Part shown: one piece after another, positions 2,031 through 40,891 of the stretch
How the letters are laid out: each line of letters starts with the position of its first letter
Numbering within the stretch: the stretch's first letter is position 1
Source of the DNA: a virus
Lineage: Duplodnaviria; Caudoviricetes
DNA: 64,000 bases
Reading direction: 5' to 3' (one strand)
Virus record (IMG/VR): IMGVR_UViG_3300037418_002332
Translations under genes and position numbers: made by a program
Notes under the pieces: model-generated
Seen by the model: the letters and a program-made list of their open reading frames with translations, nothing else
Database searches by the model: none
Told to the model about the DNA's origin: nothing

Positions 2031-2083
2031 TAGTGATTCCAAGAGTTTATCAACCATATCCACTATTCAGTCCACTCATTCAC

Positions 2084-18317: not shown

Positions 18318-19045
18318 ACTGTTCCTAATCTGTCATTAAGTTGTTCAATTGTTCCTCGCATTTTCAATGAAATCACATATTTTTTGTCTACAGTGTATTT
18401 TTGTAGACGTTTGATGGTAATCGCAACCAAACTCATGGTTTCCTGATCCATTACATCATCAGGACCACGTGGTGGATACTTGAGAATTTGTTCTTGATAC
18501 ATCTTACGACGTTTATCAGTGAAGTCAAGTTCACCATTTTGAAGCAATACCAAACAGGCATCGGTAACATGAATGACATCTTCATCAAATCCATAATACC
18601 AATTGGAGTTTTCGAAATCAAAATTGGAAACTAGTTTGACCGGATCAAGTCCTTTGACGAATGTCACATTGACTTGTACTTTGGACAACTTGCCAAGAAT
18701 GAATTTGAATGAACTATCCGAATCAGTGATAAACTTGTAATTGTCCTCAGCAAAAGTGATTTCCTCAAAACCAGTTGCATATTTTTCAGCCAGTTTTTTG
18801 AGTTCTGATTTGGTGGTGATTGAATAGTTCACGAAGATATCAAAATCAGCACCATTTGGTGAGATTTTTGGATGGAACAAATTGCCTAAACGAGAACCTG
18901 AGATAATTCCTTCTCTTAGTATCTTTTCCATTAGAGTGCCAAATTCAGAATTTGATCGAGTGGCCAATGCCAAAATTTCACGGCAATCTGCTCTCAAAGC
19001 CTTTTTGAATTTGCCCATCAAAGCTTCTAGTTCTTCATCAGTCAT
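18305..19045 (-). CDS. Pol-beta-superfamily nucleotidyltransferase-like protein (CCA/poly(A)-polymerase head-like)
   Basis: IISGS-x15-DFDIF, later LVSNFDF...YY and IKRLQKY motifs. Confidence 0.5.
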   Translation of the reverse strand: MTDEELEALMGKFKKALRADCREILALATRSNSEFGTLMEKILREGIISGSRLGNLFHPKISPNGADFDIFVNYSITTKSELKKLAEKYATGFEEITFAEDNYKFITDSDSSFKFILGKLSKVQVNVTFVKGLDPVKLVSNFDFENSNWYYGFDEDVIHVTDACLVLLQNGELDFTDKRRKMYQEQILKYPPRGPDDVMDQETMSLVAITIKRLQKYTVDKKYVISLKMRGTIEQLNDRLGTVWNL

Positions 19046-19066
19046 TCATTTTTTCCATCATTTTGT

Positions 19067-19074
19067 TATAAATA
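19067..19074 (+). promoter_or_regulatory. T4 late promoter TATAAATA for gp17
   Basis: Exact consensus 20 nt before the AAGGAG-preceded ATG at 19095. Confidence 0.85.
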
Positions 19075-19094
19075 TTTTGTTAAAAGGAGATCAC

Positions 19095-20708
19095 ATGGTA
19101 CAAAGAGATATGGCGTATAGAGGAAATAAAAACCTCAAACGCTCAAACATCATGATTAATTATACTGAGGATCAGGTCAAAGAGTACATCAAATGTGCAC
19201 TTGATCCAATCTATTTCATCGAAACATACGTCAAGGTTGTTCACGTTGACAAAGGTTTGACGCCAATGAAATTGTATTCATATCAAAAGAATACAATTTT
19301 GGCATCCAACAATAACCGTAAAGTCATTTGTAAGTTCCCAAGACAAAGTGGCAAAAGCACTTGTATCGCTGCTTTTGCTCTTCATCAAATCATTTTCAAA
19401 GAGAACTATAATATCCTCATCGCTGCAAACAAAGGCAAAACAGCGCAGGAAATTATGAAAAAAGTACAAACATCATATGAATATCTGCCAAAGTGGCTTC
19501 AACAGGGTATTGTTCCTGGTGGCTTCAACAAATCAACGATTGAACTTGAAAATGGTTCACGTTGCATGGCAACCTCAACTTCAGCTGACTCTGCTCGTGG
19601 TTTCTCATTCAACGTCGTTATCCTAGACGAATTTGCGTTCTTGCCTAAGACAGTCGCCGATGAGTTCTTCACCTCAATTTATCCTACCATTTCATCTGGT
19701 GAAACAACCAAGATGATTGTGATTTCAACTCCAAAAGGATTGAATCACTTTTACAAAATGTATACTGATGCGGTCAACAAAAAGACCGACTATTTCCCGC
19801 TCGAAATCAAGTGGGATGAAGTTCCTGGTCGTAATGAAGCATTCAGAGAAGAACAAATCAAAAACTTTGGTATCGAACGTTGGAAACAAGAATTTGAGTC
19901 TGAATTCCTCGGTTCATCCAATACTCTTATTTCATCATATACTCTTCAGAACCTGGTTTCAATAGATCCTATAAAGAAAGTCAACGGCATAAAATTCTGG
20001 GAAATGCCAGTCAAAGGACGCAAATATTTTATCTCCATGGACGGTTCTGAAGGTAAAAATCTTGACTATCATGCATTCACAGTTTTGGACATCACCGAAC
20101 GGCCATTCCGCATTGTAGCCACGTGGCGAGATAAGGAAATGGAGCCATTGCTCGTTCCTGACATTTTGTATTATGCTGGCAAAATGTACAACGATGCGTT
20201 TATTCTTATTGAAACCAAATCCACCGGTGGGCAAATTGCTGACGAACTGTATTACAATCGTGAATACTGGAATGTTCTTGGTGCTAAATCCAATGGTAGA
20301 TCAGGTCAAACATTAACAAACTATTCAAAAAATGCAAAAGGTCTTAACACTTCCAAGATAACCAAAACTGTTGGTTGCACCAACTTGAAGATGATTATTG
20401 AACATGAGCAAATCATCATCAATGACTTTGATATTGTTGAAGAACTTTCCAACTTTGCTTTGAATCAAAACACATACAAAGCTGATGAAGGTTTCAACGA
20501 CGATTTGGTCAGCTGCTTGGTATCATTTTCATGGGCAACCACTCAAACTTTCTTCCAAAACTTGAGTTCAATCAATGTTCAGGACATTTTGACTGAAAAA
20601 ACCAATGAAATGATGGAATCTTTCCTTCCAATGTTCATGTCAGACGGTATTCCTGGTTCAGATAGATCATTAGATGATGATGGTTGGGATCACTATTTCA
20701 ACAACTAA
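19095..20708 (+). CDS. gp17: Terminase large subunit gp17
   Basis: YRGNKNLKR...EYIKCALDPIYF; Walker A RQSGKS; LDEFAF; ISTPKGLNHFYKM; QEFE.EFLGS; DDLV. Start moved from the ORF-track 18882 to ATG 19095 (SD and promoter). Confidence 0.96.
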   Translation: MVQRDMAYRGNKNLKRSNIMINYTEDQVKEYIKCALDPIYFIETYVKVVHVDKGLTPMKLYSYQKNTILASNNNRKVICKFPRQSGKSTCIAAFALHQIIFKENYNILIAANKGKTAQEIMKKVQTSYEYLPKWLQQGIVPGGFNKSTIELENGSRCMATSTSADSARGFSFNVVILDEFAFLPKTVADEFFTSIYPTISSGETTKMIVISTPKGLNHFYKMYTDAVNKKTDYFPLEIKWDEVPGRNEAFREEQIKNFGIERWKQEFESEFLGSSNTLISSYTLQNLVSIDPIKKVNGIKFWEMPVKGRKYFISMDGSEGKNLDYHAFTVLDITERPFRIVATWRDKEMEPLLVPDILYYAGKMYNDAFILIETKSTGGQIADELYYNREYWNVLGAKSNGRSGQTLTNYSKNAKGLNTSKITKTVGCTNLKMIIEHEQIIINDFDIVEELSNFALNQNTYKADEGFNDDLVSCLVSFSWATTQTFFQNLSSINVQDILTEKTNEMMESFLPMFMSDGIPGSDRSLDDDGWDHYFNN

Positions 20709-20755: not shown

Positions 20756-22675
20756 ATGGCATCATTATTGTCACCTCAAGTCTTTGTGAAGGAAACCGAT
20801 CTAACAACCATTGTACCTGCTGTCTCATCAACTGACGGTGCTATTGCTGGACAATTCAATTGGGGTCCTGTTAACTATCCAACATTGATCGACAGCGAAA
20901 ATTACTTGGTTGAAGTTTTCGGCAAGCCAGATAATAACAACTCAGACGACTGGTGGTCAGCTGCTAACTTCCTTGCATATGCTAACAAGCTTTACGTCAC
21001 TCGTGTAGTTGACGAAACCAACGTTGACACTAGCCAACGTGCGAAGAACGCTGTTTCAGGCAACACTGCATTCTTGGTCAGAAATGATAAAGAGTATGCT
21101 TCTAAGTACAACAATGGTTCTCTTCAATCAACCAACGGTACAGGTGCTTGGATTGCTAAGTTCCCTGGTGTTCTTGGTAACTCATTGAAGATTTCAGTTG
21201 CTCCTTCAGCTGCAGCATATCAATCAACTCTTACTGGTACTCTTTCTGTAACAGCTAACTCATTGACAGTTACTGGTTCCGGTGGTTCCGCATTCTCAAC
21301 TGAAGCAAACGTTGGTGACTTGCTTGTATTGAACAGTGAAGTTCATAAGATTGCTGCAATCGCTAACTCAAGTTCATTGACTCTTGCTGATAGACACATT
21401 GCTGGTGCTACTGCAGCAACTGGTGTTCGTCGTTGGGAATATTACGCAAACGTTGACACTGCTCCTGGTACATCCGCTTCCGTAGCAGCGAAGGGTGGTT
21501 CAAATGACGAAATGCACATCGCTATCGTTGATGAAGATGGTGCATGGACTGGTCAAACTGGTACAGTTCTTGAAGTTTACCAATTTGTTTCAAAGTCAAA
21601 AGATGGTAAGATCAACAATGGTGCTACCAACTATTACAAAGAAGTAATTAACACCAAGTCAAAGTATGTACGTTGGGCTGGTCACGAAAGTGCCATTCCA
21701 AACTTGGGTGCAGCAGATAATCAAACTTTCGGTGCGGCTGCAAAACCATTCAAGTACTCTTTGGCTGGTGGTCTTGACGGTGCAAACATTACTGAAGACG
21801 AAAAAGTTCGTGGTTACAACTATTACAGATCAGCTGAAGACATTGATATCTCATTCATTATCGGTGCCGCAGCTAACCAAACTATAGCAGTTCATATCAT
21901 TAACAATATCGTTGAAGTTAGAAAAGATTGCGTTGCATTCTTCTCACCACCAAGATCATATGTTGTTGATGCTGAAGGTTCAGAAGCTGACAATTGCGTC
22001 ACTTTCAGAAATACTTTGCCTTCAACTTCATTTGCTACTCTTGATGGTAACTGGAAGAACCAATACGACGTTTACAACGACGTTTACAGATATGTTCCAT
22101 GTAATGGTGACACTGCTGGTCTTTATGCTCAAACCGATAATGATCGTGATGCATGGTGGGCAGCTGCTGGTCTCAACAGAGGTCATATCAAGAACGTTAT
22201 CAACTTGGCTTGGAACCCAAGACTTGCTGAACGTGACATTCTTTACAAAAATGGTATCAACCCAGTTGTTTCCTTCCAAGGTGAAGGTCCAGTTCTTTGG
22301 GGTAACAAAACTCTTCAAGCAAAGCCAAGTGCTTTCGACAGAATGAACGTTCGTCGTTTGTTCATCGTTCTTGAAAAGGCAATCTCAAAGGCTGCACAAT
22401 ACACCTTGTTCGAATTCAACGACGTATTCACTCGTGCTCAATTCAGAAACATGGTAGAACCATATCTTCGTGACGTTCAAGGTCGTCGTGGTATTTACGA
22501 CTTCTTGGTTGTTTGTGATGAAACCAATAACACTCCAGAAGTTATTGACCGAAACGAATTCAAGGGTGATATCTACATCAAGCCTGCTCGTGTTGCTGAA
22601 TTCATTACTTTGAACTTCGTTGCAACAAGAACTGGTGTTGAATTCACCGAAATCGTTGGTAGAACTGGCGTCTAA
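20756..22675 (+). CDS. gp18: Tail sheath protein gp18
   Basis: LLSPQV.VKETDLT...G.F.WGPV...A.FL.Y...L.VTRV...LY..GINPV...G..LWG.KT...SAFDRMNVRRLF. Confidence 0.97.
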   Translation: MASLLSPQVFVKETDLTTIVPAVSSTDGAIAGQFNWGPVNYPTLIDSENYLVEVFGKPDNNNSDDWWSAANFLAYANKLYVTRVVDETNVDTSQRAKNAVSGNTAFLVRNDKEYASKYNNGSLQSTNGTGAWIAKFPGVLGNSLKISVAPSAAAYQSTLTGTLSVTANSLTVTGSGGSAFSTEANVGDLLVLNSEVHKIAAIANSSSLTLADRHIAGATAATGVRRWEYYANVDTAPGTSASVAAKGGSNDEMHIAIVDEDGAWTGQTGTVLEVYQFVSKSKDGKINNGATNYYKEVINTKSKYVRWAGHESAIPNLGAADNQTFGAAAKPFKYSLAGGLDGANITEDEKVRGYNYYRSAEDIDISFIIGAAANQTIAVHIINNIVEVRKDCVAFFSPPRSYVVDAEGSEADNCVTFRNTLPSTSFATLDGNWKNQYDVYNDVYRYVPCNGDTAGLYAQTDNDRDAWWAAAGLNRGHIKNVINLAWNPRLAERDILYKNGINPVVSFQGEGPVLWGNKTLQAKPSAFDRMNVRRLFIVLEKAISKAAQYTLFEFNDVFTRAQFRNMVEPYLRDVQGRRGIYDFLVVCDETNNTPEVIDRNEFKGDIYIKPARVAEFITLNFVATRTGVEFTEIVGRTGV

Positions 22676-22681
22676 TATTTT

Positions 22682-22701
22682 GGAGGGGATTCTTCCCCTC
22701 C
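22682..22701 (+). terminator. Hairpin after gp18
   Basis: GGAGGGGA-ttct-TCCCCTCC followed by TT. Confidence 0.6.
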
Positions 22702-22725
22702 TTCACATTTTAAGGAGAAAATGAT

Positions 22726-23799
22726 ATGTTCTACACTCGCGGTTATATGAATGACAAAGTCGTTCAAAACGTCAGAGATATTTTCAAAAAGCAATCCGAA
22801 ACCAAAACTGTAACTGAAAAGGCAGAAGAAGTCAAGGACGAAAAAGTTGAAAAGCTTGATGAAGAAGTTCTAACCGAAAAAGCTTCTGCTCAAACCACAA
22901 GTTTGAAAGACATCAAGAACAAAGCAGTTGAAAAAGGCAATCTAGATTCAGCTGATAAAGATAAAGTTCCTGCCGCACCTGTTGGTGATGATGACGATGA
23001 AGAAGTCGAAAAAGAAGATGAAGATCTTGAGGAAGGTTACAAAATTGGCGATATGGTCAATGTAACTAATCCTAAGGCAACTCCAAGACATCAAATTGTT
23101 GGTAAAACCAAAACACATTATGCCATTAAGAAAGACAAAGGTGATATTCAACATTTTCCAAAAGAACGTATCGCTAGAGTAAACAAGCAACGTTTCGATA
23201 GATTGAAAGCAAATGTTACTCCTAATCGTTTGAAAGGTTCAGATATTCCCGTTAGAGAAGACGTTGAATTTGATGATGTTGAACAACTTGATGAAGTAAT
23301 GAGAATTGCTTATAAGAAAGTTGGTCCAACACATTACAGAAGTGTTGAAAAAGGCACTTGGCGTCCAGTTCCTAAGAACGTTGAAATCAAGAAAGTTGGC
23401 AATACTGTACATGTTCGTAAAGACAAGGGTACATGGATTCCTAAAGGTCCGCATGTAACCATGGAATCAGTGTTGTCTGAAGAAGAGATTGAAAAGATTA
23501 ACGCAACTTTGGCTTCAATCAATGAATCAGAATCAAAAAGATTGTCAAAAGATTTGCCTGCTGGTTATCATACTGTTGCTATTCATGACGATGCTCATAA
23601 GTCTTTCCAAATGGGTGACCGTGTTCATGTTAAATCACATGGTGACGATGTAAAAGCTGGATTGGCACACGTTAAAAGTGTAAACAATGCTGGCAACAAC
23701 TATCAACATAAGCTTGTTTATCACGATGGCAAAGGTAATTTCCATTCAACTCATCATGAAAAGGGAACTCCAACTGGCCATTATGTACAAAGAGCATAA
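22726..23799 (+). CDS. Hypothetical modular protein (acidic linkers ending in (L/I)xE alternating with basic domains); putative internal head polyprotein
   Basis: AAGGAG SD 8 nt upstream; segments ...KLDE|...VLTE|...DLEE|GYKIGD...QLDE|VMR...SINE|SESKR; sits between gp18 and gp19. Confidence 0.6.
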   Translation: MFYTRGYMNDKVVQNVRDIFKKQSETKTVTEKAEEVKDEKVEKLDEEVLTEKASAQTTSLKDIKNKAVEKGNLDSADKDKVPAAPVGDDDDEEVEKEDEDLEEGYKIGDMVNVTNPKATPRHQIVGKTKTHYAIKKDKGDIQHFPKERIARVNKQRFDRLKANVTPNRLKGSDIPVREDVEFDDVEQLDEVMRIAYKKVGPTHYRSVEKGTWRPVPKNVEIKKVGNTVHVRKDKGTWIPKGPHVTMESVLSEEEIEKINATLASINESESKRLSKDLPAGYHTVAIHDDAHKSFQMGDRVHVKSHGDDVKAGLAHVKSVNNAGNNYQHKLVYHDGKGNFHSTHHEKGTPTGHYVQRA

Positions 23800-23836: not shown

Positions 23837-24388
23837 ATGGCTTTCAATATCAATAATTTCAGAAGTGAGTTGCAATATGGTGGTGCAAGAACTTCACTTT
23901 TTGAAGTCATTTTGACCAATCCAATTGATGGTTCAGCTGACACCAAGTTGCCATTCATGTGTAAAGCTGCTTCATTACCAGCTTCTTCAATTACACCACT
24001 CGAAGCATCATATTTCGGCCGTGCTATCAAGCTTCCTGGTAACAGAACATTCGATGAATGGGCAATTACTGTCATCAACGATGAAGACTTCAAAATCAGA
24101 AATGCAATGGAAACTTGGTCAAACGCGATTAACAGATATGAAGGAAACATCAGAGGACTTCCAAGTTCTTCTCCTTCATTGTATAAGACAACTGCTGAAG
24201 TTCGTCAATTCAGTCAAACAGGCAACCTGTTGAGAACATACAAGTTCGTTGGTCTTTGGCCAATCCAAATCACCCCAATTCAATTGAATTGGGAAAATGA
24301 AAGCATTCAAGAATTTGAAGTCTCATTGGCTTTGGATTACTTCTATGTTAATGATGGTGGTTTGACTGGCAACGCTGGCGGACGCTAA
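23837..24388 (+). CDS. gp19: Tail tube protein gp19
   Basis: MAFNINNFRSEL..GGAR.SLFEV...F.CKAASLPAS...YFGR.IKLPG.RTF..W.ITVINDEDF.IR..ME.W. Confidence 0.96.
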   Translation: MAFNINNFRSELQYGGARTSLFEVILTNPIDGSADTKLPFMCKAASLPASSITPLEASYFGRAIKLPGNRTFDEWAITVINDEDFKIRNAMETWSNAINRYEGNIRGLPSSSPSLYKTTAEVRQFSQTGNLLRTYKFVGLWPIQITPIQLNWENESIQEFEVSLALDYFYVNDGGLTGNAGGR

Positions 24389-24577
24389 ATGATTCGTGAT
24401 AGAATTTTGAATAGACTTGACGAAGTATCTTCAAAAACTTTGAAAGCTTACATTCGTAAAGCAAGTCATAATAATCCAGATCATGATGTACATCAGTACA
24501 ACAAACGACAAAAGAAAATTAGACTTGCTAAACAAAAGTTAAATGTGAACGGAAATTCTAAAATCGGTGCAAATTAA
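24389..24577 (+). CDS. Small basic protein with a single LDE-S.KTL..Y..KA module
   Basis: Coupled to gp19 (TAAATG); RLDEVSSKTLKAYIRKAS...NKRQKKIRLAKQKL resembles two modules in 36754..37572. Confidence 0.65.
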   Translation: MIRDRILNRLDEVSSKTLKAYIRKASHNNPDHDVHQYNKRQKKIRLAKQKLNVNGNSKIGAN

Positions 24578-24597
24578 GGGAGCTTCGGCTCCCTTTT
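24576..24597. terminator. Intrinsic terminator (UUCG loop), probably bidirectional
   Basis: AAGGGAGC-TTCG-GCTCCCTT-TT between convergent genes. Confidence 0.85.
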
Positions 24598-25183
24598 ATT
24601 TTAGGTCAGTGAGGAAAGTTCTGATATTGTTGACAACACCTTCATTCATCAAAATTTCATAATGATTAGTGCTGACATCAATGTATTTGACGTTTGGAAT
24701 TGCTTTTTGAGAAAGTACACTTACAACACCATCGTTTTGTTTACCAAGAAACAATGGATTTGAACCTTTTGTTGAAACGTAGAATTGATATGGTACAGTA
24801 ATAGGTTTGGTTAACAAATATGAATATTCTCTTTCGAGTTTGTGAAATTCACTGTAGATAGATTTTGGAAACCAAAAACGGAGTAAACTATGATTTGTAA
24901 TGCCACCAAATGGTGCAGACATAGTTGTGATGCTTCTGATATTCTTAAGGCCAAGATGGAATAGAATGACACACATGACACCACCCAGTGAATGACCAAT
25001 CAAGTCAATTTTGGTATTGTCCTCAACTCTTTTTTCAATTCTTGATTTGATTTTCTTAACAGTTTCTACCAAATCAGATTCAGTTTTGTATTCAATGTAA
25101 ATGTCATCATCTAGAGGCATCTGCGTCTTGATGTAATTGAATGAGTTCCGTGTTGAGTAGGCACCATGGATATAGATACGCAT
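24596..25183 (-). CDS. Alpha/beta hydrolase (lipase/esterase-like)
   Basis: YIHGA oxyanion motif, GHSLGG nucleophile elbow, SAPFGG, NDGVV, NHYE (putative Ser-Asp-His triad). Confidence 0.8.
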   Translation of the reverse strand: MRIYIHGAYSTRNSFNYIKTQMPLDDDIYIEYKTESDLVETVKKIKSRIEKRVEDNTKIDLIGHSLGGVMCVILFHLGLKNIRSITTMSAPFGGITNHSLLRFWFPKSIYSEFHKLEREYSYLLTKPITVPYQFYVSTKGSNPLFLGKQNDGVVSVLSQKAIPNVKYIDVSTNHYEILMNEGVVNNIRTFLTDLK

Positions 25184-25239: not shown

Positions 25240-26958
25240 ATGGCGACATTCTTTGAAAAATTGCTTGGTGTGAATCTCACAAAAGATGAAGACGAAGCAA
25301 AAGCAAAAGGTGCTTTCCAACTCCCTGAACCACCGAAAAATGACGGTTCAATTGAAGTTGATAGCAGTAACTTTTTGCAATTCGGTACTTCATTTGATTA
25401 TGCAGTTCCTGAAGACGAAGTACAACTCATCACCAAGTATCGTGAAATGGCCGAGCAAATGGAATTTGATCGTGCTATCAACCACGTTGTTAATGAATTC
25501 TTTGCATATGATACTGACACCATGCCTGTATCCATCAACCTTGAAAACACAAAACTTTCAGATAACATCAAAAAGAAAATTACAACTGAATTTGACAACA
25601 TTTTGAAGATGTTGAACTTTGGTACTGATGCATATGAAATCTTCTCAAGATGGTATGTTGATGGCCGTTTGTATTACCAAAAAGTCATTGACGAACAAAA
25701 CAAGTCCAAGGGTATCCTTGCACTCAAGTATATTGATCCTCGTAAGATCCGTAAAGTCAGAAAAAAAATAGACGACAAATCTAACAAAACGACACAAAAC
25801 AATGTTAAAAACAACATCCGTCTCGATGTGCAATACAAAGAATTCTACGTTTACAACCCAACTGGCATTAACAACACCAATGTTCAGGGTCTACAAATCG
25901 AAAAGGATTCAATCACGTATGTTCACTCAGGAAAGTTTACCAGAGAAAACAAGACCGTCATCTCACACCTGCATAAAGCCATTCGTTGGTTCAATGTTTT
26001 AAGAAATATTGAAGACTCCGTCGTCATTTATCGTTTGTCACGTGCATCTGAAAAAAGAGTATTCAACATTGAACTAGGTGATTTGCCTCAGTCACAAGCT
26101 GAAGCTCACATGAAGAAAGTCATCGACAAATTCAGAAAGAGACTTTCATACAATCCACAAACTGGTGAAGTCATTGAACAAAAACGTTTCATGACTATGT
26201 TGGAAGACTTCTGGTTCGCAAAGCGCGATGGTAAAGGTACATCAGTTGAATTTCTTCAAGGTGGACAAAACCTTGGTGAAATGGAAGACGTTGATTACTT
26301 CAAGAAGAGATTCTATGAGTCATTAAACGTTCCAATTACTCGACTTGATCCAACCATTGGTTTCACTTTGGGTCGTGCATCGGAAATCACTCGTGAAGAA
26401 CTTGCATTCTACAAATTCATTTCACGTCTCCGTAAACGTTTCAGCTATTTGTTTGAAGACATTTTGAAGACTCAATTGATTTTGAAAAATATTTTGAAAG
26501 AACAAGAGTGGAATGATGTATACCAAGACATTCACTTCGATTACCTTGAAGATACTTACTTCAGTGAATTGAAAGAAACTGAAATTTGGCAAAACCGTTT
26601 CAACGCGGCTCGTGATACAGGTGTTGAAGGCAAATTGGTTTCGCGTCTATTTGTTCAAAAGAAATTGCTTCGACTTACTGATGAAGAAATTGCTGATGAA
26701 AATAAGCAACTTGAAAAAGAAAACAATGATGATCTTGAGATAAGCTTGCAACAACAAGCTGTTCAACAGGCTGGAGCACCTGAAGATGAAGATCGTGGTC
26801 CACAACCTGGACCTGAACCAAAGTTCCAACAAGGTTCTGAAGCTGATATCAGTGAACAACTTGAATACATTAAAGAAGAACTTGAAATAACCAAGCGTCG
26901 TCAACAACGTGAAGAAACTGAGTTCTATGAAATGTTGAAAGGTCTAATTGATGAATAA
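25240..26958 (+). CDS. gp20: Portal vertex protein gp20
   Basis: LI.KYREMA...E.D.AI..VVNE...WYVDGRLYY...[11 protein letters not shown]...[30 protein letters not shown]...[28 protein letters not shown]. Confidence 0.97.
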
Positions 26959-27760
26959 TAAATTTCAAGCAGTTGCTGGTCTCATTAAAAAACTTGTTGA
27001 AAAAGAAAATGCCAAAGTAACAAAGTATTTCAATGACATTTTGGTTGAAAAAATTGATCCAACCAGAGTTCATTTGATTGAAGGACCGCAGGGTCCTCCT
27101 GGTAAAATTGGTCCAGCAAGTAACATTCCTGGCCCTCCTGGCCCAGCTGGTCCTCCCGGTCCAATTGGTATTCCTGGACCAAAAGGTAAATCAATCAAGG
27201 GTGATCAAGGACCACAAGGAATTCCTGGACCAAAAGGTGAACCAGGTCCTCCTGGCCCAGCTGGTCCTCCTGGCCCAATTTCTGATGTTAAATCTGAAGT
27301 TACAAAAATTGAAAAAACATTGCTTGAAAAATTCCAAGCATTGAAATCTGACTTGGAAAGTAGAGTCAACTTCCTTGGAAGAAGAACTGCTTCTGGTGGT
27401 GGTTCTACTCGTATTCTGGACAATGATGATGTTGATTTCCATCAGCCTGAGGACGTTCTTGACAACTCTATTTTGCTTTATGACGCATCAATTCGTAAAT
27501 TTGTGCCTCTTAACTTGGTCACAGTTATAAATAACTTGAAAAGCGAGTTGGAATTCATGTACAATAAAGTAATTGATGACACTGGCAACATTGTCTATAT
27601 CGGTGAGACTGATCCATCTGGTCTAGATTATAATGCAGCAAATTGGAGAATCAAAAGGGTTGATCAAACTGATCCAACTGATACTCGTATTACTTGGGCC
27701 GACGGCACGACTGACTTCGACAAAGTTTGGGCAGACAGAACAACTTATACTTATTCATAA
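26951..27760 (+). CDS. Collagen-like virion protein
   Basis: About 20 Gly-X-Y triplets ([12 protein letters not shown]...GPAGPPGP), GGGS..I..DDV, C-terminal VYIGE.DP...WRIKR...W.DGT..F..VW.DR..Y.Y; overlaps the portal stop. Confidence 0.75.
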
Positions 27761-27779
27761 CAAGAGGATTTAAAAACTT

Positions 27780-28184
27780 ATGGCACTTCAATATTCAGTA
27801 GCTGTTAGAAATGCTAGACTTGATACAGTTGAATCAACAATCGGCACTTCACCAGTTCTTCAAATCAAGTCTGGTTCAGCACCAGCAACTTGCGCAACTG
27901 CTAACTCTGGTACAATTTTGGCTTCAGCAACTTTGCCTTCCGACTGGATGGCAGCTGCGTCAGGTGGTACAAAGTCATTGTCAGGTACTTGGCAAGATAC
28001 TTCAGCTGATAACACTGGTACAGCAGCTCACTTTAGAATTTTCTCTTCAACAGGTACTTGTCACATTCAAGGTACTGTAACTGCAACTGGTGGTGGTGGT
28101 GATATGACTGTGGATAACACTTCATTCGCTTCCGGTCAATCATTCTCAGTTACAACTTTCACTTTGACTGCTGGCAACGCTTAA
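27780..28184 (+). CDS. Conserved small phage structural protein (beta-rich)
   Basis: MALQYSVAVRNARLD....IG.SP.L.I.SG..PA...TGTA.HFRI...G.V...GGDM..DNT....GQ...T.FTLT.GN; GAGG SD. Confidence 0.55.
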   Translation: MALQYSVAVRNARLDTVESTIGTSPVLQIKSGSAPATCATANSGTILASATLPSDWMAAASGGTKSLSGTWQDTSADNTGTAAHFRIFSSTGTCHIQGTVTATGGGGDMTVDNTSFASGQSFSVTTFTLTAGNA

Positions 28185-28211
28185 TTCTTTCTGAAATATT
28201 CTGTTATTATT

Positions 28212-28237
28212 TGAAGGCGGCAATTATGCCGCCTTCA
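28212..28237 (+). terminator. Intrinsic terminator
   Basis: TGAAGGCGGCA-atta-TGCCGCCTTCA-TTTTT. Confidence 0.85.
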
Positions 28238-28284
28238 TTTTTATGATTAGAATAAATAAACTGATAACATATTCAGGAAGAAAA

Positions 28285-28860
28285 ATGCCATTAGTTGATA
28301 GCAATCTCGAGTCTACATGGTTACAATTATACAGCTGTGAAATCGACGGGAAAATCGTTGGATTTGATCGTTCCGCCAAACAACAGTATTTTGGTAATGA
28401 TCATATGATCCTTAAAGATGCTCTCCAACTTACTCCTGAAGATGGCATAGTATTAATTGGTGGAGCATTTGGTTGGGTAGCAGAAGATTGGATCGCTACT
28501 GGTCTTTCTGTAATTGTTACCGATACTTCTACATGGATTCAAGCTCACAAAGCTGAACAAGCTACAATTCCAATTCTTTTTGAATCATCTCTTACACCGG
28601 AATCTAGAGCAACTATTGCGGAAGCAATGGGTCGCCCAATTACAGTTGTCATTACTGAAGATGTACTTCCCAATTTGACTGATAATGAATGTGTTGAATT
28701 GTCAAATGCTATGCGTTTGATGTCACAAAATGTTGTTCATTGGGTATCATGTGCAACACCAAGTTCAGGCGGTGGATTGAATTGGAAGACTGCAGATGAG
28801 TGGAAGCAATTACTTGGTCCTGACCGCATCGTTCGTCGCGGCACAAGTGAGGTGATCTAA
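28285..28860 (+). CDS. Class I SAM-dependent methyltransferase-like protein
   Basis: IVLIGGAFGW (motif I-like), V..TDTS.W (motif II), VVITEDVLPNL.D.E, NWKT..EWK.LL; AATAAATA at 28251-28258 upstream; start set to ATG 28285 after AGGA. Confidence 0.45.
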   Translation: MPLVDSNLESTWLQLYSCEIDGKIVGFDRSAKQQYFGNDHMILKDALQLTPEDGIVLIGGAFGWVAEDWIATGLSVIVTDTSTWIQAHKAEQATIPILFESSLTPESRATIAEAMGRPITVVITEDVLPNLTDNECVELSNAMRLMSQNVVHWVSCATPSSGGGLNWKTADEWKQLLGPDRIVRRGTSEVI

Positions 28861-31800
28861 TGGCATTACCTGTAACAATTACTGGCATTGATACTGCCGT
28901 TAATCCAGTTGGCCCATTCAGGTCATCTGCTGGTAACTATTATTTCTTCGGTAAAGATAGCACCACCGCAACGACATTACAGGCTTTCAAATCTACGGCA
29001 CCAACCTCTTCTTGGTCAAGTGCTGCAACAAAAACTGGTTTTACTACTGGTGTTCAAGCTATTTCAGGTTTCCAGGTAGCTGATGTTATTCATCTAGCTG
29101 TAACAGATGGTGCAACTACATCTGTTAACTTCAAATATGTCACCTACAATATGTCGACTGATGCTTTCGGCACAACCGAAACAATCACATCAGCACTGAA
29201 TACCCAAACTAACGGACTTGTTAACGCTTACGGAAACTCTATCGCTGTTCGTTCTGATGGTACAGTTGTAGTTCTTCACCAAGGTGCTCGTGTTGTCAGC
29301 ATGAGCAACTCGTACTCACGTACTGTATATTCAAGACGTGCAACGAACGGAACATGGACAGCAAACATTGCTGTCGATGCTGGTGGTGCATTTGATGGCC
29401 TTGTATTTGACACTGCAGTAGGTACAAGTGACAACGTTCACTTCATGTTTATGGCAGGTTCTGGTACTTTCTCGCAGAGAACTTTGTCCAGTGCAAACGT
29501 TCTTCAGACACAATCAACTGCAATCAATGGTGTTTCATTTACAGGATCAATTCTTGGTACTTCGGTATCATATCTGAGCACTAATCAGAGAGTTGTCTTT
29601 GGTGTTACCACTCAAGTACAGCAAACCAACTTCATTCCGGCCGGTTTCTATTTCGATTCTGGGAACACACCTACACTGACTAGTACTGTAGGCGGTGGTA
29701 CCAACACATCAACTTCACGTCTATTTCAGTATAATGGAACTGTTTACCACCTTTGGAATGTCACTGGTAACAATGCTAATATCAATTTGCACACATCAGC
29801 AGATAATGGTGCTACGTATGTTTCATCTTCAGTAGTTTACACTGGCACTTCTACTTGTAGTTTGTTTTCGCATGACGGTGCAGTTTATCAAAGCGGAAGT
29901 AACATTGTTGTTCCATATCTTATATTGGATAACGGCACATTAAAATACAATGAATACACTGTACAATATGGTTTGGCTGCTTCCATAACAGAAGCAAATG
30001 ATACAGTTTCATCAACTGCAAATCCAAAAATCACTGCCAACAATCCGGGTGGTGTTGCATTCACACAACAAGCTGCACCAAGTGCTGGCACAAAAAGTTG
30101 GCAAGCAGTAGCATCATCAACTACTGGTTCAACTGTTTGGGCAGCAGTTTATGGTGGCGGCATCTATAAATCTACCGACTATGGTGCAACTTGGGCACAA
30201 AGAGTTGGTGCTGCAAATTTCCAAGATATTTGTTCTTCCGCTAATGGCCAAGTTGTAGCAGCTGTTGATAACAATGTCGGTAACATTTGGTCAACTACTG
30301 ATGGTGTAAACTTTACAGCAAGAACTGGTGCTGGGTCAAGAGCTTGGTGGGCTATCGCTTGTTCTTCCGATGGTAGCAGAATGGTTGCTGTCATCAATGG
30401 TACAGGCTATACATATACATCGTCTGACTCAGGTGTAACTTGGACTGAACAAACTGCTGCTGGTACCAAAAACATTAACGCACTTGCGATGTCGTCAGAT
30501 GGAAGTATCGTTTATGCTTGTTATGGTGCAAGTCCTTATCGTATCTATAAATCTACTGATTATGGTGTTAATTGGACATTACTATCCAACTCACCTACAT
30601 CGTGGTGCAATGCTATTACTTGTTCTGCTGACGGAACTCAAATTTACGCTACAGTCGGTGGTGGCAACATCTATGCTTCGACTGACTCAGGATCAACTTG
30701 GAATGCATTATCAGGTGCCGGAACTGCAAATTGGGGTATGATCTCATGCAGTTCTAGTGGCACTAAAGTAATCGCTGCATCATATTCTAACAGTGTATTA
30801 ACTTCGATTGATTCTGGTGCCACTTGGACTACAAATCCAGTTGGTTCAAGTACATGGCAAGATGTCGGTATATCCCCTGACGGAAGTACATGGTTCGCAT
30901 TAGCTTATGGCAGTTACTTCTACACTGGTGCATTGAGTGCACCAAAACAAATTGTAGCAATACAACCAACATCATTTGGTGCTGCAAACTTTGGTGATAT
31001 TACAGCGGATACTGGACTTGGCCAAACGTTTATTCCTCGTTATTTGGTTCCAGGTCTTATACAAACCTCAACCATCAATGGCGGTTTAGTTTTTGGTTTT
31101 AATTCAACCTTTAAAGGTTTAGCACAAGCTATCACGCCTGCTACCAATTCTACAGTTGATCGTATAACTTTCAATATGTACAAAACTGGTACTCCAACAG
31201 ATAATGTTTGGGTAGAACTTCGAGATAATACTGGAGCATCAATTATTGCCACATCAAATACTGTGGCAGGTTCTTCAATCAATTCTGGTTCATCTAGTAG
31301 TCAAGACATTCAATTTACTTTTGCGTCTCCACCAACGTTGAATGCAGGTACAACCTACATTTTGTTGGTTCAACGTAGTGGTGCAGTAGATTCTTCTAAT
31401 TACTATTCTATTAACGCTGATTACACAAATCCTTATGCTGGTGGTGATTCATACTCTTGGAATGGATCTGCATACACCTTAAATGGTGGTCAAGATCTTG
31501 CATTTGCTGTCTATAGCACATCAACTGCTACAGTTGTAATTTCTGATATTACTTTGAAACTTATAAAAAATGGTTCGCCTACTGATAATCTCACTATTGA
31601 ATTGAGAGATTCGACAGGTGCTACTTTACTTGGAACATCAGATGCAATTGCTGGCGCAAGTACTTCATCAAGTACAACAGCTACAACGTTTACATTTTCA
31701 ACACCCGTCAGTATTACAGCCGGAACAACATATATGTTTGTTCTGCGAAGATCAGGTGCAGTCGATGCTTCCAATTATTGGGGTGTAGTTAGAAATAACC

Positions 31801-36753: not shown

Positions 36754-37572
36754 ATGAAGAAACTAATCGATTACATTGATAACGAAAAGTTGTCAAAATT
36801 CACTGAAAATGCAAAGTCTATCTTAACTAAAAAGATGGAAGCAGCAGTTGACAACGAACGTTTCGAAGTTGCTGCAAACTTCTTCGGTCCAATTACCGAA
36901 TCAGATGATTATGAAGAAGCTGAACCAAATATGGATGTTGACATCGATCCAGAAGACTGGGATGAAGACGAAATTGCTGAACTTGAAGCAATTGTTTGGG
37001 ACGAAGATGACGACGGCGACATCGATGAAGATGACGTCAGTGATTTGACTTACGAACAAGTTGTATATGCTGTAGAACGTGCAGAACAACTTGATGAAAT
37101 ATCAAAGAAGCTTCTTGGTTCATATGTTGATGCTGCTGCCGATGATTTGAAATTCACTGCTAGACAAGGTGGAAGAGAACATGCAAGAGGTGAAAATACC
37201 AAAAAATCTTATGATGCAGCAAATAAGCGTCTTAAAGGAATTCGTATGGCAACTAAGAAGTTGACCAAAGAACAAGTTGAACATCTCGTTGAACTTTCAA
37301 GAAAAACTCTTGCATCATACACCAGAAAAGCTGCTGATGACATGGCTTCAAAGCATGGTGAAAACCTTTCAAATAGAAAGGATCACGAAGCAAGACAAAA
37401 TAAATTGAACAATGCTGAACATAATGCTGATTGGGAAACTAAGCAACATTTGAGAAAAGCTGCTCAAGCAGACAGAGATGTTGGACATGAAAAAGAAAAC
37501 AAATTGAGAAGAGGCATTTTCAAAAGATCTATTGGCATCAAGAGAGCAACTGATAGATTGGCAAAGGACTAA
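36754..37572 (+). CDS. Prohead core protein (gp67/gp68-like position) with two C-terminal basic modules
   Basis: Directly upstream of gp21; helical N-terminus (...ERFEVAANFF), very acidic middle, then QLDE|ISKKLLGSYV... and LVE|LSRKTLASYT... modules. Confidence 0.65.
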   Translation: MKKLIDYIDNEKLSKFTENAKSILTKKMEAAVDNERFEVAANFFGPITESDDYEEAEPNMDVDIDPEDWDEDEIAELEAIVWDEDDDGDIDEDDVSDLTYEQVVYAVERAEQLDEISKKLLGSYVDAAADDLKFTARQGGREHARGENTKKSYDAANKRLKGIRMATKKLTKEQVEHLVELSRKTLASYTRKAADDMASKHGENLSNRKDHEARQNKLNNAEHNADWETKQHLRKAAQADRDVGHEKENKLRRGIFKRSIGIKRATDRLAKD

Positions 37573-37578
37573 TCATCA

Positions 37579-38232
37579 ATGAAACTACTTAGAGAAATCA
37601 ACGAACAAGTTGAATACCTTACAGAAGCTGATGCTAAAACTGGCAATAAGAAGTATATTCTGGAAGGAATTTTCCTTCAAGGTAATCTAAAAAACAAAAA
37701 TGGTAGAATTTATCCTGTTGACGTTCTTGAAAACGAAGTAAATCGATACAATGAACAATATGTCAACAAGAATAGAGCATATGGTGAATTGGATCACCCA
37801 TCTACACCATCTATCAATTTGTCAAATGCAAGTCACGTCATTACTGAACTTACAAAAGTTGGTGACAACTTCATTGGTAAAGCACGTGTTCTTACTGAAA
37901 CTACAAAAGGCAAAACTGTAAAAGCCATCATGGATGAAGGTTTGTCTCTTGGTGTTTCATCAAGAGGTATGGGTGCCTTGAAAGAAGACAAGTCAGGTTC
38001 AAAAGTTGTTGAACAATACTTCTTGACAACTGCTGCTGACATTGTTGCTGATCCTTCTGCTCCTGATGCATTTCCAGAAAATGTATTTGAAAATGTTGAA
38101 TGGATTTTGACTAATGAAGGTTGGATTAAGCAAGAAGCTGGATTCAAACTTGTTCAAGAAATGAAACAAAAGTCTAAAGTTGAACGTGAAGAACAGTTCT
38201 TCAGAGCGTTTAAAGCACTTTTGAACAGCTAA
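37579..38232 (+). CDS. gp21: Prohead protease gp21
   Basis: LEGIFLQG..KN.NGRIYP..VLE.EV.RY...RA.GELDHP...SH.I...GKA.V...T.GK...GVSSRG.G...DIVADPSAPDAF. Confidence 0.96.
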   Translation: MKLLREINEQVEYLTEADAKTGNKKYILEGIFLQGNLKNKNGRIYPVDVLENEVNRYNEQYVNKNRAYGELDHPSTPSINLSNASHVITELTKVGDNFIGKARVLTETTKGKTVKAIMDEGLSLGVSSRGMGALKEDKSGSKVVEQYFLTTAADIVADPSAPDAFPENVFENVEWILTNEGWIKQEAGFKLVQEMKQKSKVEREEQFFRAFKALLNS

Positions 38233-38283: not shown

Positions 38284-39492
38284 ATGGCTAAAAAGCTTGA
38301 AGAACTTTTGAAAGAACAAGAAGATGAACTTCTTCAAGGTTCAGATGAAGCAACAGACGAATTGAACGAAGAAGCTGTTGATGACGAAGCATCTGATGAA
38401 GTTGATGCTCCAGAAGCTGAACTTGAAGACGAAGAAGACGCTGAAGAAGTCGAAGAAGCTGCATATCCTTCAATCGATTTCCAAAAGGAAAAAGTTAAGG
38501 GCGGAAAAGGCGGCAAGGCTGTTTATCCAACCGTTGACTTCAAGAAATCTGTAGCAAAAGGTGGTGCTCAACAACCTGGTAAAATGGCGAAAGTCGATTT
38601 CAAGGGTGATAGAGACGGCAACACCAATAAAAAGACTCCAGTTGATCCAGAATCATATCCAAAAGTTAGACCAAACTTCGAACCTGAAGTTGTTGCTAAC
38701 ATGACCAGAGAAGATATCTCTGACGAAACAAGAGCGCATCTTGCTAGCTTGTTCGCAGGTGAAGAACTTTCTGAAGAATTCATTGCGAAAGTACAAGAAA
38801 TTTTTGAAGCAGCTGTTATCGTAACTGCTCAAGAAGCTCTTAACGCAAAAGTAAAAGAAATTGTTGAAAAGTATGAAGCTTCATTCGAAACAGTTCTTGA
38901 AACTGCAGAAGCTGAAGTTGAAACTTACAAGCAAGAATTGAATGAAAAGTCAGACGCATACTTTGATTACGTTGTTGAACAATGGGTTGAAGAAAACAAA
39001 CCAGCTGTTCATGCAAATATCAAGTCTGATTTGACTGAATCATTCATCAAAGGTCTACAAAATCTATTCGTCGAACATTACATTGATATCCCTGACGACA
39101 AAGTAGAAGTTGTGGAAGAAATGGTTGAAGAACTTGAAGCACTTCGTGATCGTAACGAAGAAATTCTTCATGAAAATCTTCAATTGAAGACTGAAGCCAA
39201 GAACGTCGTTAAGTCATTCTTGATCAGAGAGCATACAAAGGACCTTTCAGAAAACGAAAGAGAAAAGTTCCAAGCTTTGGCTGAACATATTTCTTTCGAT
39301 GATGAAAAATCTTTCCAAGGCAAATTGAGTGAAATCAGTGACACATATTTCAATGAATCAGTTGTTGTTGAGTCATCCCTTGAAGATGATACACCATTGG
39401 AAACTATCGAAGAAGAAGTGAAACCAGTTGGTAAAGAACTAACTGAAGTTGAAAGTATGGCTGCAATGATGACTAAGTTCCTCAAAAAATAA
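38284..39492 (+). CDS. gp22: Prohead core scaffold protein gp22
   Basis: Acidic coiled coil; LF.GEELSEEF..K...IFEAAV, Y.DYVVEQW.EEN..A....IK..L.ESFI.GL..LF.EHYID.P; lies between gp21 and gp23. Confidence 0.92.
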   Translation: MAKKLEELLKEQEDELLQGSDEATDELNEEAVDDEASDEVDAPEAELEDEEDAEEVEEAAYPSIDFQKEKVKGGKGGKAVYPTVDFKKSVAKGGAQQPGKMAKVDFKGDRDGNTNKKTPVDPESYPKVRPNFEPEVVANMTREDISDETRAHLASLFAGEELSEEFIAKVQEIFEAAVIVTAQEALNAKVKEIVEKYEASFETVLETAEAEVETYKQELNEKSDAYFDYVVEQWVEENKPAVHANIKSDLTESFIKGLQNLFVEHYIDIPDDKVEVVEEMVEELEALRDRNEEILHENLQLKTEAKNVVKSFLIREHTKDLSENEREKFQALAEHISFDDEKSFQGKLSEISDTYFNESVVVESSLEDDTPLETIEEEVKPVGKELTEVESMAAMMTKFLKK

Positions 39493-39535: not shown

Positions 39536-40891
39536 ATGAATAATGAACTTGAAAAGCTTTTGGAAAAGTGGAACCCAGTTCTCGACCTTGATGGTCTTCC
39601 AAAAATTGCTGATTACCATAAAAGAGCAACTACAGCAGTTCTGCTTGAAAACCAAGCAGTTGCTAACAAAGAAACAGTTCGTAGAGAACCATCCCTTTCT
39701 TTGACTTACTTGATGGAAGCTGCTCCAACAAACAGCATGGGTACTTCAGAAGCAGGTACTGGTAACATCGATTACCAAGACCCAATCTTGATCTCCCTTG
39801 TTCGTCGTTCAATGCCTAACTTGATGGCATATGACGTTTGCGGCGTTCAACCAATGACTGGCCCAACCGGCTTGATCTTTGCTCTTAGATCACGTTACTC
39901 AGCTCAAGATGGTATCGAAGCTTTGTTCAACGAAGCTAACACCACTTTCGCTGCATCTGCTGCAGGTAACACTGCTTCAGTAACTGCTGCTGGTTTGCAC
40001 ACCGGTGCTGATCCTTCCCTTCTTATCTCATCAGGTAATACTGCTTACTTGACTGGTAGAGGTATGTCAACTGCTGCTCTTGAAGCACTTGGCGATAAGT
40101 CAACCAACGCTTTCCAAGAAATGTCAATGAGTCTTGAAAAGATCGCCGTTACTGCGGAAGCAAGAGGCGTCAAGGCTGAATATACCCATGAACTTTCACA
40201 AGACTTGAAGGCAACTCACGGTCTTGATGCTGAAAGCGAATTGGCTAACATCCTTTCAAAGGAAATCTTGGCTGAAATCAACCGTCAAGTTATTCGTTCT
40301 ATCTATACAACTGCTACCATTGGTGCACAACAAGGCGGTCTTGCGCAAGCTGGTTACTTCGACCTTGATGTTGACTCAAACGGTCGTTGGATGGAAGAAA
40401 AGTTCAAAGGCTTGATGTATCAAATCGAAAGAGAATGTAACGCTATTGCGCAAGCAACTCGTCAAGGTCGTGGTAACTTCATTATCACTTCTTCAGACGT
40501 TGCATCCGCTCTTTCAATGATCGGTATCTTGAAGTCAACTGATGGTCCTGACCTTCAAGTTGATGACACTGGTAACGTTTTTGCAGGTACCATCCTTGGT
40601 AAGATTAAGGTCTTCATCGACCCTTACTTCACCTCAAACGCTGGTAACAACTTCATCGCCGTCGGTTACAAGGGTTCATCACCTTTCGACGCTGGTATGT
40701 TCTACTGCCCATACGTTCCTTTGACCATGTACAGAACTCAAGGTCAAGATAACTTCCAACCAAAGATTGGTTTCAAAACCAGATACGCTCTCGCAGCGCA
40801 TCCTTTTGCTACCACCGCTGCGGATGGTAAAGTTCATGTTAACAAGAAGAACAAGTACTACAGATTGTTCGCTGTTAAGAACCTTACATAA
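39536..40891 (+). CDS. gp23: Major capsid protein gp23
   Basis: EKWNPVLD...LLENQ...DPILISLVRR.MPNL.AYD.CGVQPMTGPTGLIFALR...QDLKA.HGLDAE.ELANILS.EILAEINR...YCPYVPL...FQPKIGFKTRY. Confidence 0.98.
   Translation: MNNELEKLLEKWNPVLDLDGLPKIADYHKRATTAVLLENQAVANKETVRREPSLSLTYLMEAAPTNSMGTSEAGTGNIDYQDPILISLVRRSMPNLMAYDVCGVQPMTGPTGLIFALRSRYSAQDGIEALFNEANTTFAASAAGNTASVTAAGLHTGADPSLLISSGNTAYLTGRGMSTAALEALGDKSTNAFQEMSMSLEKIAVTAEARGVKAEYTHELSQDLKATHGLDAESELANILSKEILAEINRQVIRSIYTTATIGAQQGGLAQAGYFDLDVDSNGRWMEEKFKGLMYQIERECNAIAQATRQGRGNFIITSSDVASALSMIGILKSTDGPDLQVDDTGNVFAGTILGKIKVFIDPYFTSNAGNNFIAVGYKGSSPFDAGMFYCPYVPLTMYRTQGQDNFQPKIGFKTRYALAAHPFATTAADGKVHVNKKNKYYRLFAVKNLT

Follow-up and report, generated by a model that had tools for sequence, protein, structure and literature searches.

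The gene for the 357-residue protein P0001 lies between the tail sheath and tail tube genes of a T4-like phage, within a 64,000-nucleotide stretch of virus record IMGVR_UViG_3300037418_002332 (Duplodnaviria; Caudoviricetes) that was analysed as a whole and is referred to here as the window. Judging from the sequences of P0001 and its relatives, we consider it probable that this protein is a precursor from which the S77 prohead protease of the same phage releases several head-internal cargo proteins. It would probably work like the internal proteins (IPs) of phage T4, with three cargo modules in one gene. T4 IPs are the classic case of proteins that travel in a capsid and reach the cell together with the DNA, and one T4 IP inhibits a restriction enzyme.

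P0001 consists of alternating acidic and basic segments. Following an N-terminal leader, each of three basic modules comes after an acidic spacer or linker (Table 1), and the computed charge of the full-length chain is close to neutral (residues 1–357, net −1, isoelectric point (pI) 7.0). An earlier note on this DNA, made from the letters alone, had described acidic linkers alternating with basic domains, the third of them His-rich, and the charge profile bears this out: the spacers sum to net −15, −7 and −3 and the modules to +11, +8 and +3, with −10 for residues 52–103 taken by themselves. The gene that it placed at 22726–23799 between sheath and tube is a 357-residue open reading frame (ORF) preceded by AAGGAG, with neighbours identified by Pfam and PHROG matches. 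All five joints that it quoted are present (KLDE, residues 43–46; VLTE, 48–51; DLEE, 100–103; QLDE, 187–190; SINE, 265–268). Two of its three module starts are exact (23035, G104; 23296, V191), and the third, put at 23527, is one codon too early, as SESKRL begins with S269 at 23530. P0001 contains eight [LIV]xE motifs in total, namely LDE 44–46, LTE 49–51, LEE103, LDE190 and INE268, together with VTE 29–31, VRE 176–178 and LSE 250–252. One of these stands directly before each putative mature part (LEE103↓G, LDE190↓V and INE268↓S; arrows mark candidate cleavage points). The predicted products of 7–10 kDa (8.6, 7.1 and 9.9 kDa) have pI values of 9.3–10.5, and in this they match the small basic products typical of internal proteins.

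The modules travel independently of each other. When 1.8 billion representatives were searched exhaustively with phmmer, 37 relatives of P0001 came to light but no full-length homologue; each relative has one module in common with P0001. Module 1 is present in 33 copies in other metagenomic phage proteins of 117–1208 residues, where it starts anywhere between residues 45 and 870. It is the only cargo after a short leader in P0018–P0020 and P0022, and many other copies are located within long strings of small modules. Homologues of module 2 are found in P0002, P0036 and P0037. Module 3 has a homologue in P0034 (135 residues), where it is the sole cargo after a P0001-type leader and TVNE. Since other T4-like phage proteins contain these modules singly and in shuffled arrangements, the three are independent evolutionary units, which agrees with the earlier description of three unrelated domains. 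The modules were aligned separately, since a composite MAFFT alignment had put module 2 and module 3 fragments onto module 1. P0001 matched no Pfam family at E ≤ 0.1 other than by one chance-level match and no PHROGs family, and most of the long homologues likewise have no family in Pfam or PHROGs. No relatives were obtained from tblastn of P0001 against GenBank phages, from an IMG/VR scan with whole P0001 or from a module-1 scan of bacterial and archaeal genomes; a word-index search with P0034 retrieved no homologue but P0034 itself.

The joint preceding each module is kept in a fixed register. In 28 of the 33 copies of module 1, [LIV]xE occupies exactly positions P3–P1 before the first Gly, and none of the 33 copies has the motif in the three neighbouring registers. 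Glu is found at P1 in 31/33 copies and I, L or V at P3 in 28/33; P2 and P4 are variable. P0032 and P0033 carry a 12-residue N-terminal extension of module 1, and their LDE stands ahead of the extension. This 12-residue upstream shift argues that the motif is not part of the barrel fold. An equivalent junction precedes all four copies of module 2 and both copies of module 3, and 16 of the 17 family copies of a helical LSxKTLxxY module are preceded by the motif in the form [LIVM]xE. Across the family, [LI]DE occurs 70 times versus 10.6 expected. The comparative evidence for a junction motif is therefore strong, unlike that from P0001 taken alone.

T4 gp21 cuts after Glu in L/I-x-E, and a 10–19-residue N-terminal capsid-targeting sequence (CTS) loads the IPs (PMC9026906). 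With Asp in place of Glu at P1, T4 substrates are no longer processed (PMC9026906). A T4-type portal, an S77 protease, a scaffold and a gp23 are all encoded in the same window as P0001, judging by their Pfam matches, so that the phage possesses the T4-type protease, gp22-type scaffold and gp23-type capsid that go with T4-type internal proteins. The gp23 homologue has YLME↓AAPT (motif at residues 58–61) at the expected maturation position and the gp21 homologue has YLTE↓A (residues 13–16); both sites had been noticed before and are confirmed here. The S77 protease is presumed to be the processing enzyme of P0001.

T4-like targeting peptides are found at the N-termini of several other module-1 carriers. 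In T4 (NC_000866), IPIII and IPII begin with MKTYQEFIAE↓A and IPI with MKTFKEFTSTTTPVSTITE↓A (MKTFKEF...ITE↓A). Carriers of module 1 start with MKSLKRFLAE (P0003), MKSFKAFQAE (P0014), MKTLKDFFE (L177), M(S/T)KDFKKFLTE (P0016, P0024) and MKPTKTFLE (P0006). The genes for P0003 and P0014 adjoin genes for Alt-type ADP-ribosyltransferases and a lysozyme or muramidase gene, and P0007 is encoded in the same variable region. In another phage, the interval that separates the portal gene from the small core genes and the protease contains the gene for P0004, also a module-1 carrier. These genomic places fit head cargo.

The sheath–tube slot itself shows a comparable behaviour. Of 157 related loci, about 135 have the sheath and tube genes side by side with 10–114 nt between them, which makes it fair to call the P0001 gene inserted, as the earlier note had done. 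In six loci (L052, L055, L117–L119 and L141) the gap holds a gene of 177–202 codons that starts with MKSFKEYILE↓A, or in L119 with MKSFKEYTLE↓A, a peptide closely resembling the MKTYQEFIAE↓A of T4 IPIII and IPII. These six are partly redundant across two collections and may represent few distinct phages. The slot gene lies at 3217–3825 in L052 and at 2855–3388 in L055, and a conserved gene for a 164-residue protein comes next. The two closest relatives of the P0001 locus, L002 and L005, were found via common modules, and in their slot the leader MFY(T/S)xGY is kept and the cargo changed. The slot of L005 encodes the leader plus module 3 only (135 residues). That of L002 has two genes, one encoding the leader plus an unrelated 350-residue body and the other a diverged form of the leader joined to further modules, among them module 2. 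Alignment of four such leaders gives M1, F2, Y7 and D10 as invariant, and the similarity fades past about 10 residues. T4-even IP loci likewise combine a conserved address with variable cargo (PMC3012670). The slot could thus resemble those loci in its conserved leader and variable cargo; a common gene start would give the same picture. Scans of IMG/VR and JGI metagenomes with the tube protein for closer slot relatives returned only matches of ≤53% identity.

P0001 is encoded as a late gene. Its gene is on the same strand as the late structural genes, tightly spaced among them and without a promoter of its own. The T4 late-promoter word TATAAATA occurs nine times versus 2.3 expected. The nearest copy upstream of P0001 is at 19067 and a terminator hairpin at 24576–24595 ends the unit, which indicates that P0001 is co-transcribed with the terminase, sheath and tube genes. 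A second hairpin, just 3' of the sheath stop codon (Table 1), was missed by the terminator scan because it has no T-run; its effect upstream of the cargo gene may be to attenuate the transcript or to stabilise it.

The whole virus record spans 247 kb and is about 97% complete. The phage is known solely from soil and rhizosphere metagenomes, with identical pieces in several such runs. Contigs of four soil runs were compared; they contained identical pieces, with no gain or loss of modules. No RNA runs are listed among the sequencing runs that hold pieces of the phage. The DNA at 22987–23035, which encodes the Asp/Glu-rich spacer, cross-matches short soil-metagenome contigs of other organisms with loose ends on both sides, and read depth there is therefore not phage-specific.

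Structure prediction supports a modular protein rather than a single globule, with limited model confidence outside module 1. An AlphaFold2 (AF2) model of P0001, calculated with the module-1 alignment, has a predicted template-modelling score (pTM) of 0.34. It contains a helix at residues 10–68, a non-helical low-confidence spacer at 69–103, module 1 as strands plus a C-terminal helix with a predicted local distance difference test (pLDDT) of about 97, module 2 as β-hairpins (pLDDT 70–79), a helix at 252–275 and a poorly defined module 3. Folding as one globular unit, which the earlier note had named as an outcome that would refute its proposal, is not what the model shows: a confident module 1 stands isolated and the spacer is of low confidence. 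A second AF2 run on residues 176–357 gave the same picture at low confidence, with an uninformative best Z of 4.5. Comparison of module 1 by VIA-align ranked SH3, Tudor and KOW barrels best (Z 4.5–5.1, root-mean-square deviation 2.3–4.2, 44–60 residues aligned), a level common for small domains. Foldseek of the whole model against the PDB gave nothing at E ≤ 0.001 (E-values ≥ 0.17), the ESM Atlas yielded generic small barrels only, and Pfam found no KOW, Tudor or SH3 match in module 1. The predictions support module 1 as an SH3/Tudor/KOW-like small barrel at the fold level, with nothing firm on function. Of the two SH3/KOW-like starts suggested earlier, this one stands in that restricted sense only; for modules 2 and 3 the fold predictions are poor.

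These observations can be combined into a mechanism. P0001 would be synthesized late from the terminase–sheath–tube operon as a charge-neutral chain in which acidic spacers mask the three basic modules. The chain would be taken up into the prohead scaffolding core, presumably via its conserved N-terminal leader. The S77 protease would then cut after the Glu of (L/I/V)-x-E, both in the spacers and directly before each module. The acidic spacer peptides would exit the head in the manner of T4 core fragments, and the three small basic products would stay with the packaged DNA and probably be delivered with it. We infer that the products of P0001 are packaged, cleaved, retained, bound to DNA and injected, and the computed segment charges suggest that the basic modules would be masked until they are inside the head. 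An anti-defence role of the modules is speculation.

Several observations weigh against this interpretation. The eight [LIV]xE motifs of P0001 are not above what its composition predicts (shuffle mean 5.9, p = 0.22), and the above-chance signal is owed to the fixed register in the relatives, not to the count in P0001 itself. The three module cores of P0001 contain no such motif (1.1 expected, not significant), and family-wide depletion inside module cores is weak (5 versus 10.5 expected, p about 0.03). The P0001 N-terminus, MFYTRGYMND, is unlike a T4-type CTS; the first 24 residues are free of Glu, and the earliest (L/I/V)-x-E is the one at residues 29–31. A regex search found the leader in no other gene of the 247-kb genome, so its conservation could be a mere common gene start in three related phages. 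The gene is located among tail genes, not head genes. LDE190 and INE268 fall in predicted helices of modest confidence and may therefore be inaccessible to the protease. The LSxKTL modules have a hydrophobic P1', and the motif could belong to an amphipathic helix rather than a cut site.

From these points arises the most serious alternative, which we judge unlikely, that P0001 is modular but remains uncut, or loses only its leader, and serves as a flexible DNA-binding or scaffold-accessory protein. The joint motif would then have a structural role, capping a helix or marking the edge of a domain, or would have arisen incidentally through recombination between conserved acidic linkers. The chance-level motif count, the amphipathic-helix start of the LSxKTL modules and the helical setting of LDE190 and INE268 all agree with this explanation, and recombination that exchanges modules would likewise be eased by conserved linkers of the EEVE(L/I)DE type. 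T4 gp21, moreover, leaves some L/I-x-E of folded proteins uncut. Few determinants of gp21 cleavage are known (PMC9026906). An uncut protein is harder to reconcile with a register that is fixed ahead of four unrelated module types, and a fold role for the motif with its upstream shift in P0032 and P0033. The most conserved junction position is the P1 Glu, with P2 and P4 free, which is the pattern of a gp21 site, and the single-cargo versions P0018–P0020 and P0022 are composed of leader, motif and module 1.

It is quite improbable that P0001 is a non-virion accessory, such as an intracellular regulator or a nucleic-acid-binding factor, occupying a permissive slot. The slot does accept other genes: it is empty in most related loci and contains homing-endonuclease-like genes in about a dozen of the 157 (L012, L040, L053, L063, L066, L070, L107, L115, L139, L140, and L005 at 2067–3614), a call based on motifs alone except for a Pfam DUF7487 match in L005. 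Against such a role, the P0001 gene is co-oriented with and tightly spaced among late structural genes with no promoter of its own, its modules occur with T4-type capsid-targeting N-termini and in prohead core gene clusters, and CTS-bearing genes fill the same slot in other phages. A tail-associated function, as an assembly factor or tube-lumen protein, is very improbable, since the position between sheath and tube genes is all that speaks for it, the modules travel with head-related and IP-like loci, P0001 resembles no Pfam or PHROGs tail family, and most T4-like relatives have no gene in the slot, which places P0001 outside the conserved tail pathway. Processing of P0001 as a head-internal precursor remains the reading that we favour. 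The earlier proposal of a gp21-processed multi-effector precursor accordingly keeps the backing of the modularity, the fixed-register junctions and the T4-like N-termini on other carriers, and loses that of the P0001 leader, which is not a T4-type CTS.

Table 1. Segments of P0001 and features of the surrounding late region, in coordinates of the window
Feature	Position	Strand	Basis or remarks
P0001, modular precursor gene (putative), 357 aa	22726..23799	+	ORF; without Pfam or PHROG family
Leader, aa 1–51	22726..22878	+	First 10 residues MFYTRGYMND conserved; then predicted long helix with VTE31, LDE46, LTE51
Acidic spacer, aa 52–103	22879..23034	+	Net −10, pI 4.2; ends DLEE103; non-helical, low-confidence from about residue 69
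Module 1, aa 104–178 (G104)	23035..23259	+	8.6 kDa, net +11, pI 10.5; small SH3/Tudor/KOW-like β-barrel then helix (predicted)
Acidic linker, aa 179–190	23260..23295	+	Net −7; ends QLDE190; charge profile
Module 2, aa 191–252 (V191)	23296..23481	+	7.1 kDa, net +8, pI 10.2; tandem β-hairpin repeat (KKVG..., KGTW.P twice)
Linker, aa 253–268	23482..23529	+	Net −3; predicted helix; ends SINE268; charge profile, AF2
Module 3, aa 269–357 (S269)	23530..23796	+	9.9 kDa, net +3, pI 9.3, 12 His; low-confidence fold prediction
Shine-Dalgarno AAGGAG, 8 nt 5' of ATG	22712..22717	+	Read in sequence
Hairpin, 8-bp stem and 4-nt loop (GGAGGGGA TTCT TCCCCTCC), just 3' of sheath stop	22682..22701	+	Read in sequence
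Terminase large subunit	18882–20708		
Tail sheath	20756–22675		Pfam Phage_sheath_1, Phage_sheath_1C, Gp18_domIII_N; phrog_23
Tail tube	23837–24388		Phage_T4_gp19; phrog_45
62-aa ORF directly after tube gene	24389..24577	+	Short leader ending RLDE, then basic helical module (VSSKTLKAYIRKA...)
Terminator-like strong hairpin	24576–24595		Terminator scan; overlaps stop codon of 62-aa ORF
Portal	25240–26958		Pfam Portal_T4 2e-150
272-aa gene at gp67/gp68 (prohead core) position	36754..37572	+	Extremely acidic middle; two basic helical modules after QLDE, HLVE
S77 prohead serine protease (gp21 homologue)	37579..38232	+	Pfam Peptidase_S77 1.5e-33; phrog_207 4e-68
Scaffold (gp22-type)	38284–39492		Pfam T4_CASP 1.5e-61
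Major capsid protein (gp23 homologue)	39536..40891	+	Pfam Gp23 9e-128

Further genes of the same phage encode proteins of similar design. The 62-residue ORF that follows the tube gene belongs by its predicted architecture to the same family as P0001; its helical module type (VSSKTLKAYIRKA...) has 17 copies in the polyprotein family, 16 of them after [LIVM]xE. The modules of the 272-residue protein recur in polyproteins with modules 1 and 2 (P0002, P0015, P0025 and P0038), and its orthologue in L005 (7122–7910), of the same design, is encoded directly between the portal and protease genes. P0001 is neither at the gp67/gp68 position nor a member of that sequence family, lying between sheath and tube. 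A second locus in the same genome, outside the window (G000:C1 241149–242117 and 242604–243314; L006 8150–9118 and 9605–10315), encodes two proteins, one of 322 residues (MTNKTEIDE↓G...) that contains a phrog_23027-like module and one of 236 residues with two IxE↓IS.K.L.NYMKK modules. Both genes lie upstream of a DUF7207-like gene, and the locus shares synteny with those that encode polyproteins in L003, L007 and L008.

One named phage encodes a protein of similar design and a second one a candidate. The cultured T4-like Caulobacter phage Cr30 (NC_025422 29635–31683, gp064; L173 3789–5837) has a 682-residue 'hypothetical protein' of P0001-like design, which starts with MRSKILAE↓ISKKTL and continues with repeated LEE↓IS, LDE↓IS, LDE↓VS, INE↓A and LNE↓(R/K) junctions. 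Since Cr30, whose host is C. crescentus CB15, is in culture, the idea is directly testable. The candidate, judged by its N-terminus and one shared module, is a 447-residue hypothetical protein of Synechococcus phage S-SRM01 (MW015081; L011 3223–4566) starting with MKSFSQFLEE↓S; a neighbouring 532-residue protein ends in a Lys/Gly-rich module common to P0013, P0014 and P0023, and a lysin gene is near.

Other genes of the structural block are of interest in their own right. A PGAP1-like α/β-hydrolase (lipase or esterase type, GHSLGG) is encoded at 24596–25183 (−) between the tube and portal genes; it is kept at the same place in L002 and L005 and is unusual within a T4-type structural block. Directly 3' of the portal gene, 26948–27760 (+) encodes a 270-residue protein with collagen-like G-x-y repeats, and a similar gene follows the portal gene in L002. 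A repeat-rich 2616-residue protein is encoded at 28860–36710 (+), between the portal region and the core genes. In L005 the core and protease genes come straight after the portal gene, so the giant gene plus 26948–28860 represents an insertion relative to L005.

If the proposal is right, many uncultured T4-like phages multiply the internal-protein principle, with several cargo proteins per gene. Joined to its acidic spacers, the basic cargo would do no harm before its proteolytic release within the head, and the joints would permit rapid reshuffling of cargo. This would give access to a large and uncharacterised reservoir of small phage proteins that are injected, to be mined for DNA-condensing or anti-defence activities by a simple sequence rule of address peptide, acidic spacer, hydrophobic-x-Glu and basic module, and nature would have provided a design for loading several proteins into T4-type capsids. 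We suggest, only tentatively, that T4-like phages of soil, freshwater and sea have a class of charge-masked cargo polyproteins, in which one address peptide is combined with interchangeable basic modules, the head-maturation protease releases the modules at hydrophobic-x-Glu joints, the acidic joints double as recombination points, and the modules condense DNA or oppose host defences. In that case the P0001 leader, MFYTRGYMND, would represent another type of capsid-targeting peptide besides the T4 CTS.

A full-text literature search, of incomplete coverage and hence no proof of absence, found no published description of internal-protein polyproteins in T4-like phages. Two known systems are conceptual neighbours of P0001, not relatives. 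In jumbo phages (phiKZ gp175, 201phi2-1 and SPN3US gp245 substrates), a protease related to gp21 cleaves many head proteins on the C-terminal side of Glu; the long propeptides of these substrates contain multiple redundant sites, and ejection carries the products into the host (PMC9026906, PMC10052503). These inner-body and ejection proteins belong to another phage group, have their own motif before Glu rather than L/I-x-E and are not homologous to P0001; in their descriptions a single mature part follows the propeptide, rather than a series of small exchangeable modules. Polyvalent proteins contain several unrelated domains, are predicted to be packaged and delivered with the DNA, and are sometimes freed by proteolysis (Iyer et al., 2017, PMC5512222). 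They resemble the proposed P0001 precursor in having several unrelated domains per polypeptide and differ in that these are enzymatic or anti-restriction domains (ART, MuF, MPTase, methylase-helicase and others), often accompanied by their own peptidase. Pfam and PHROGs detected none of the polyvalent-protein domain families in P0001, which has tiny basic non-enzymatic modules and would be cut by the head-maturation protease.

The T4 system itself is closer. T4 gp22, gp67 and gp68 are acidic or mixed-charge core parts that gp21 cuts at several sites, and most of the fragments leave the head (PMC9026906). The 272-residue gene product matches gp67/gp68 in gene position and combines this with the P0001-like design of spacer and basic modules. 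P0001 is encoded elsewhere and has no module directly in common with it, and whereas the T4 core proteins are degraded, the basic modules of P0001 are proposed to be retained as folded products. With T4 IPI, IPII, IPIII and Alt, P0001 would have small basic products in common; the T4 IPs are about 8, 10 and 20 kDa (PMC9026906), and their precursors have a computed pI of 8.9–9.5. T4 IPs also have L/I-x-E before the mature part, and the same protease, scaffold and capsid families are present in the phage studied here. Their loci, like the P0001 slot, join variable cargo to a conserved N-terminal leader, and MKTYQEFIAE-like starts are found on other module-1 carriers. The differences are equally clear. 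T4 IPs have one cargo per gene as opposed to three modules with acidic spacers, the P0001 leader is unrelated to the T4 CTS, its gene lies between tail genes, and its putative mature parts have no sequence similarity to any T4 IP. Lacking a T4-type CTS, P0001 is not filed as a plain T4-type internal protein. P0001 departs from the IP, CTS and gp21 system of T4 in combining several cargo modules in one precursor, in its acidic, putatively masking spacers and in its position between tail genes.

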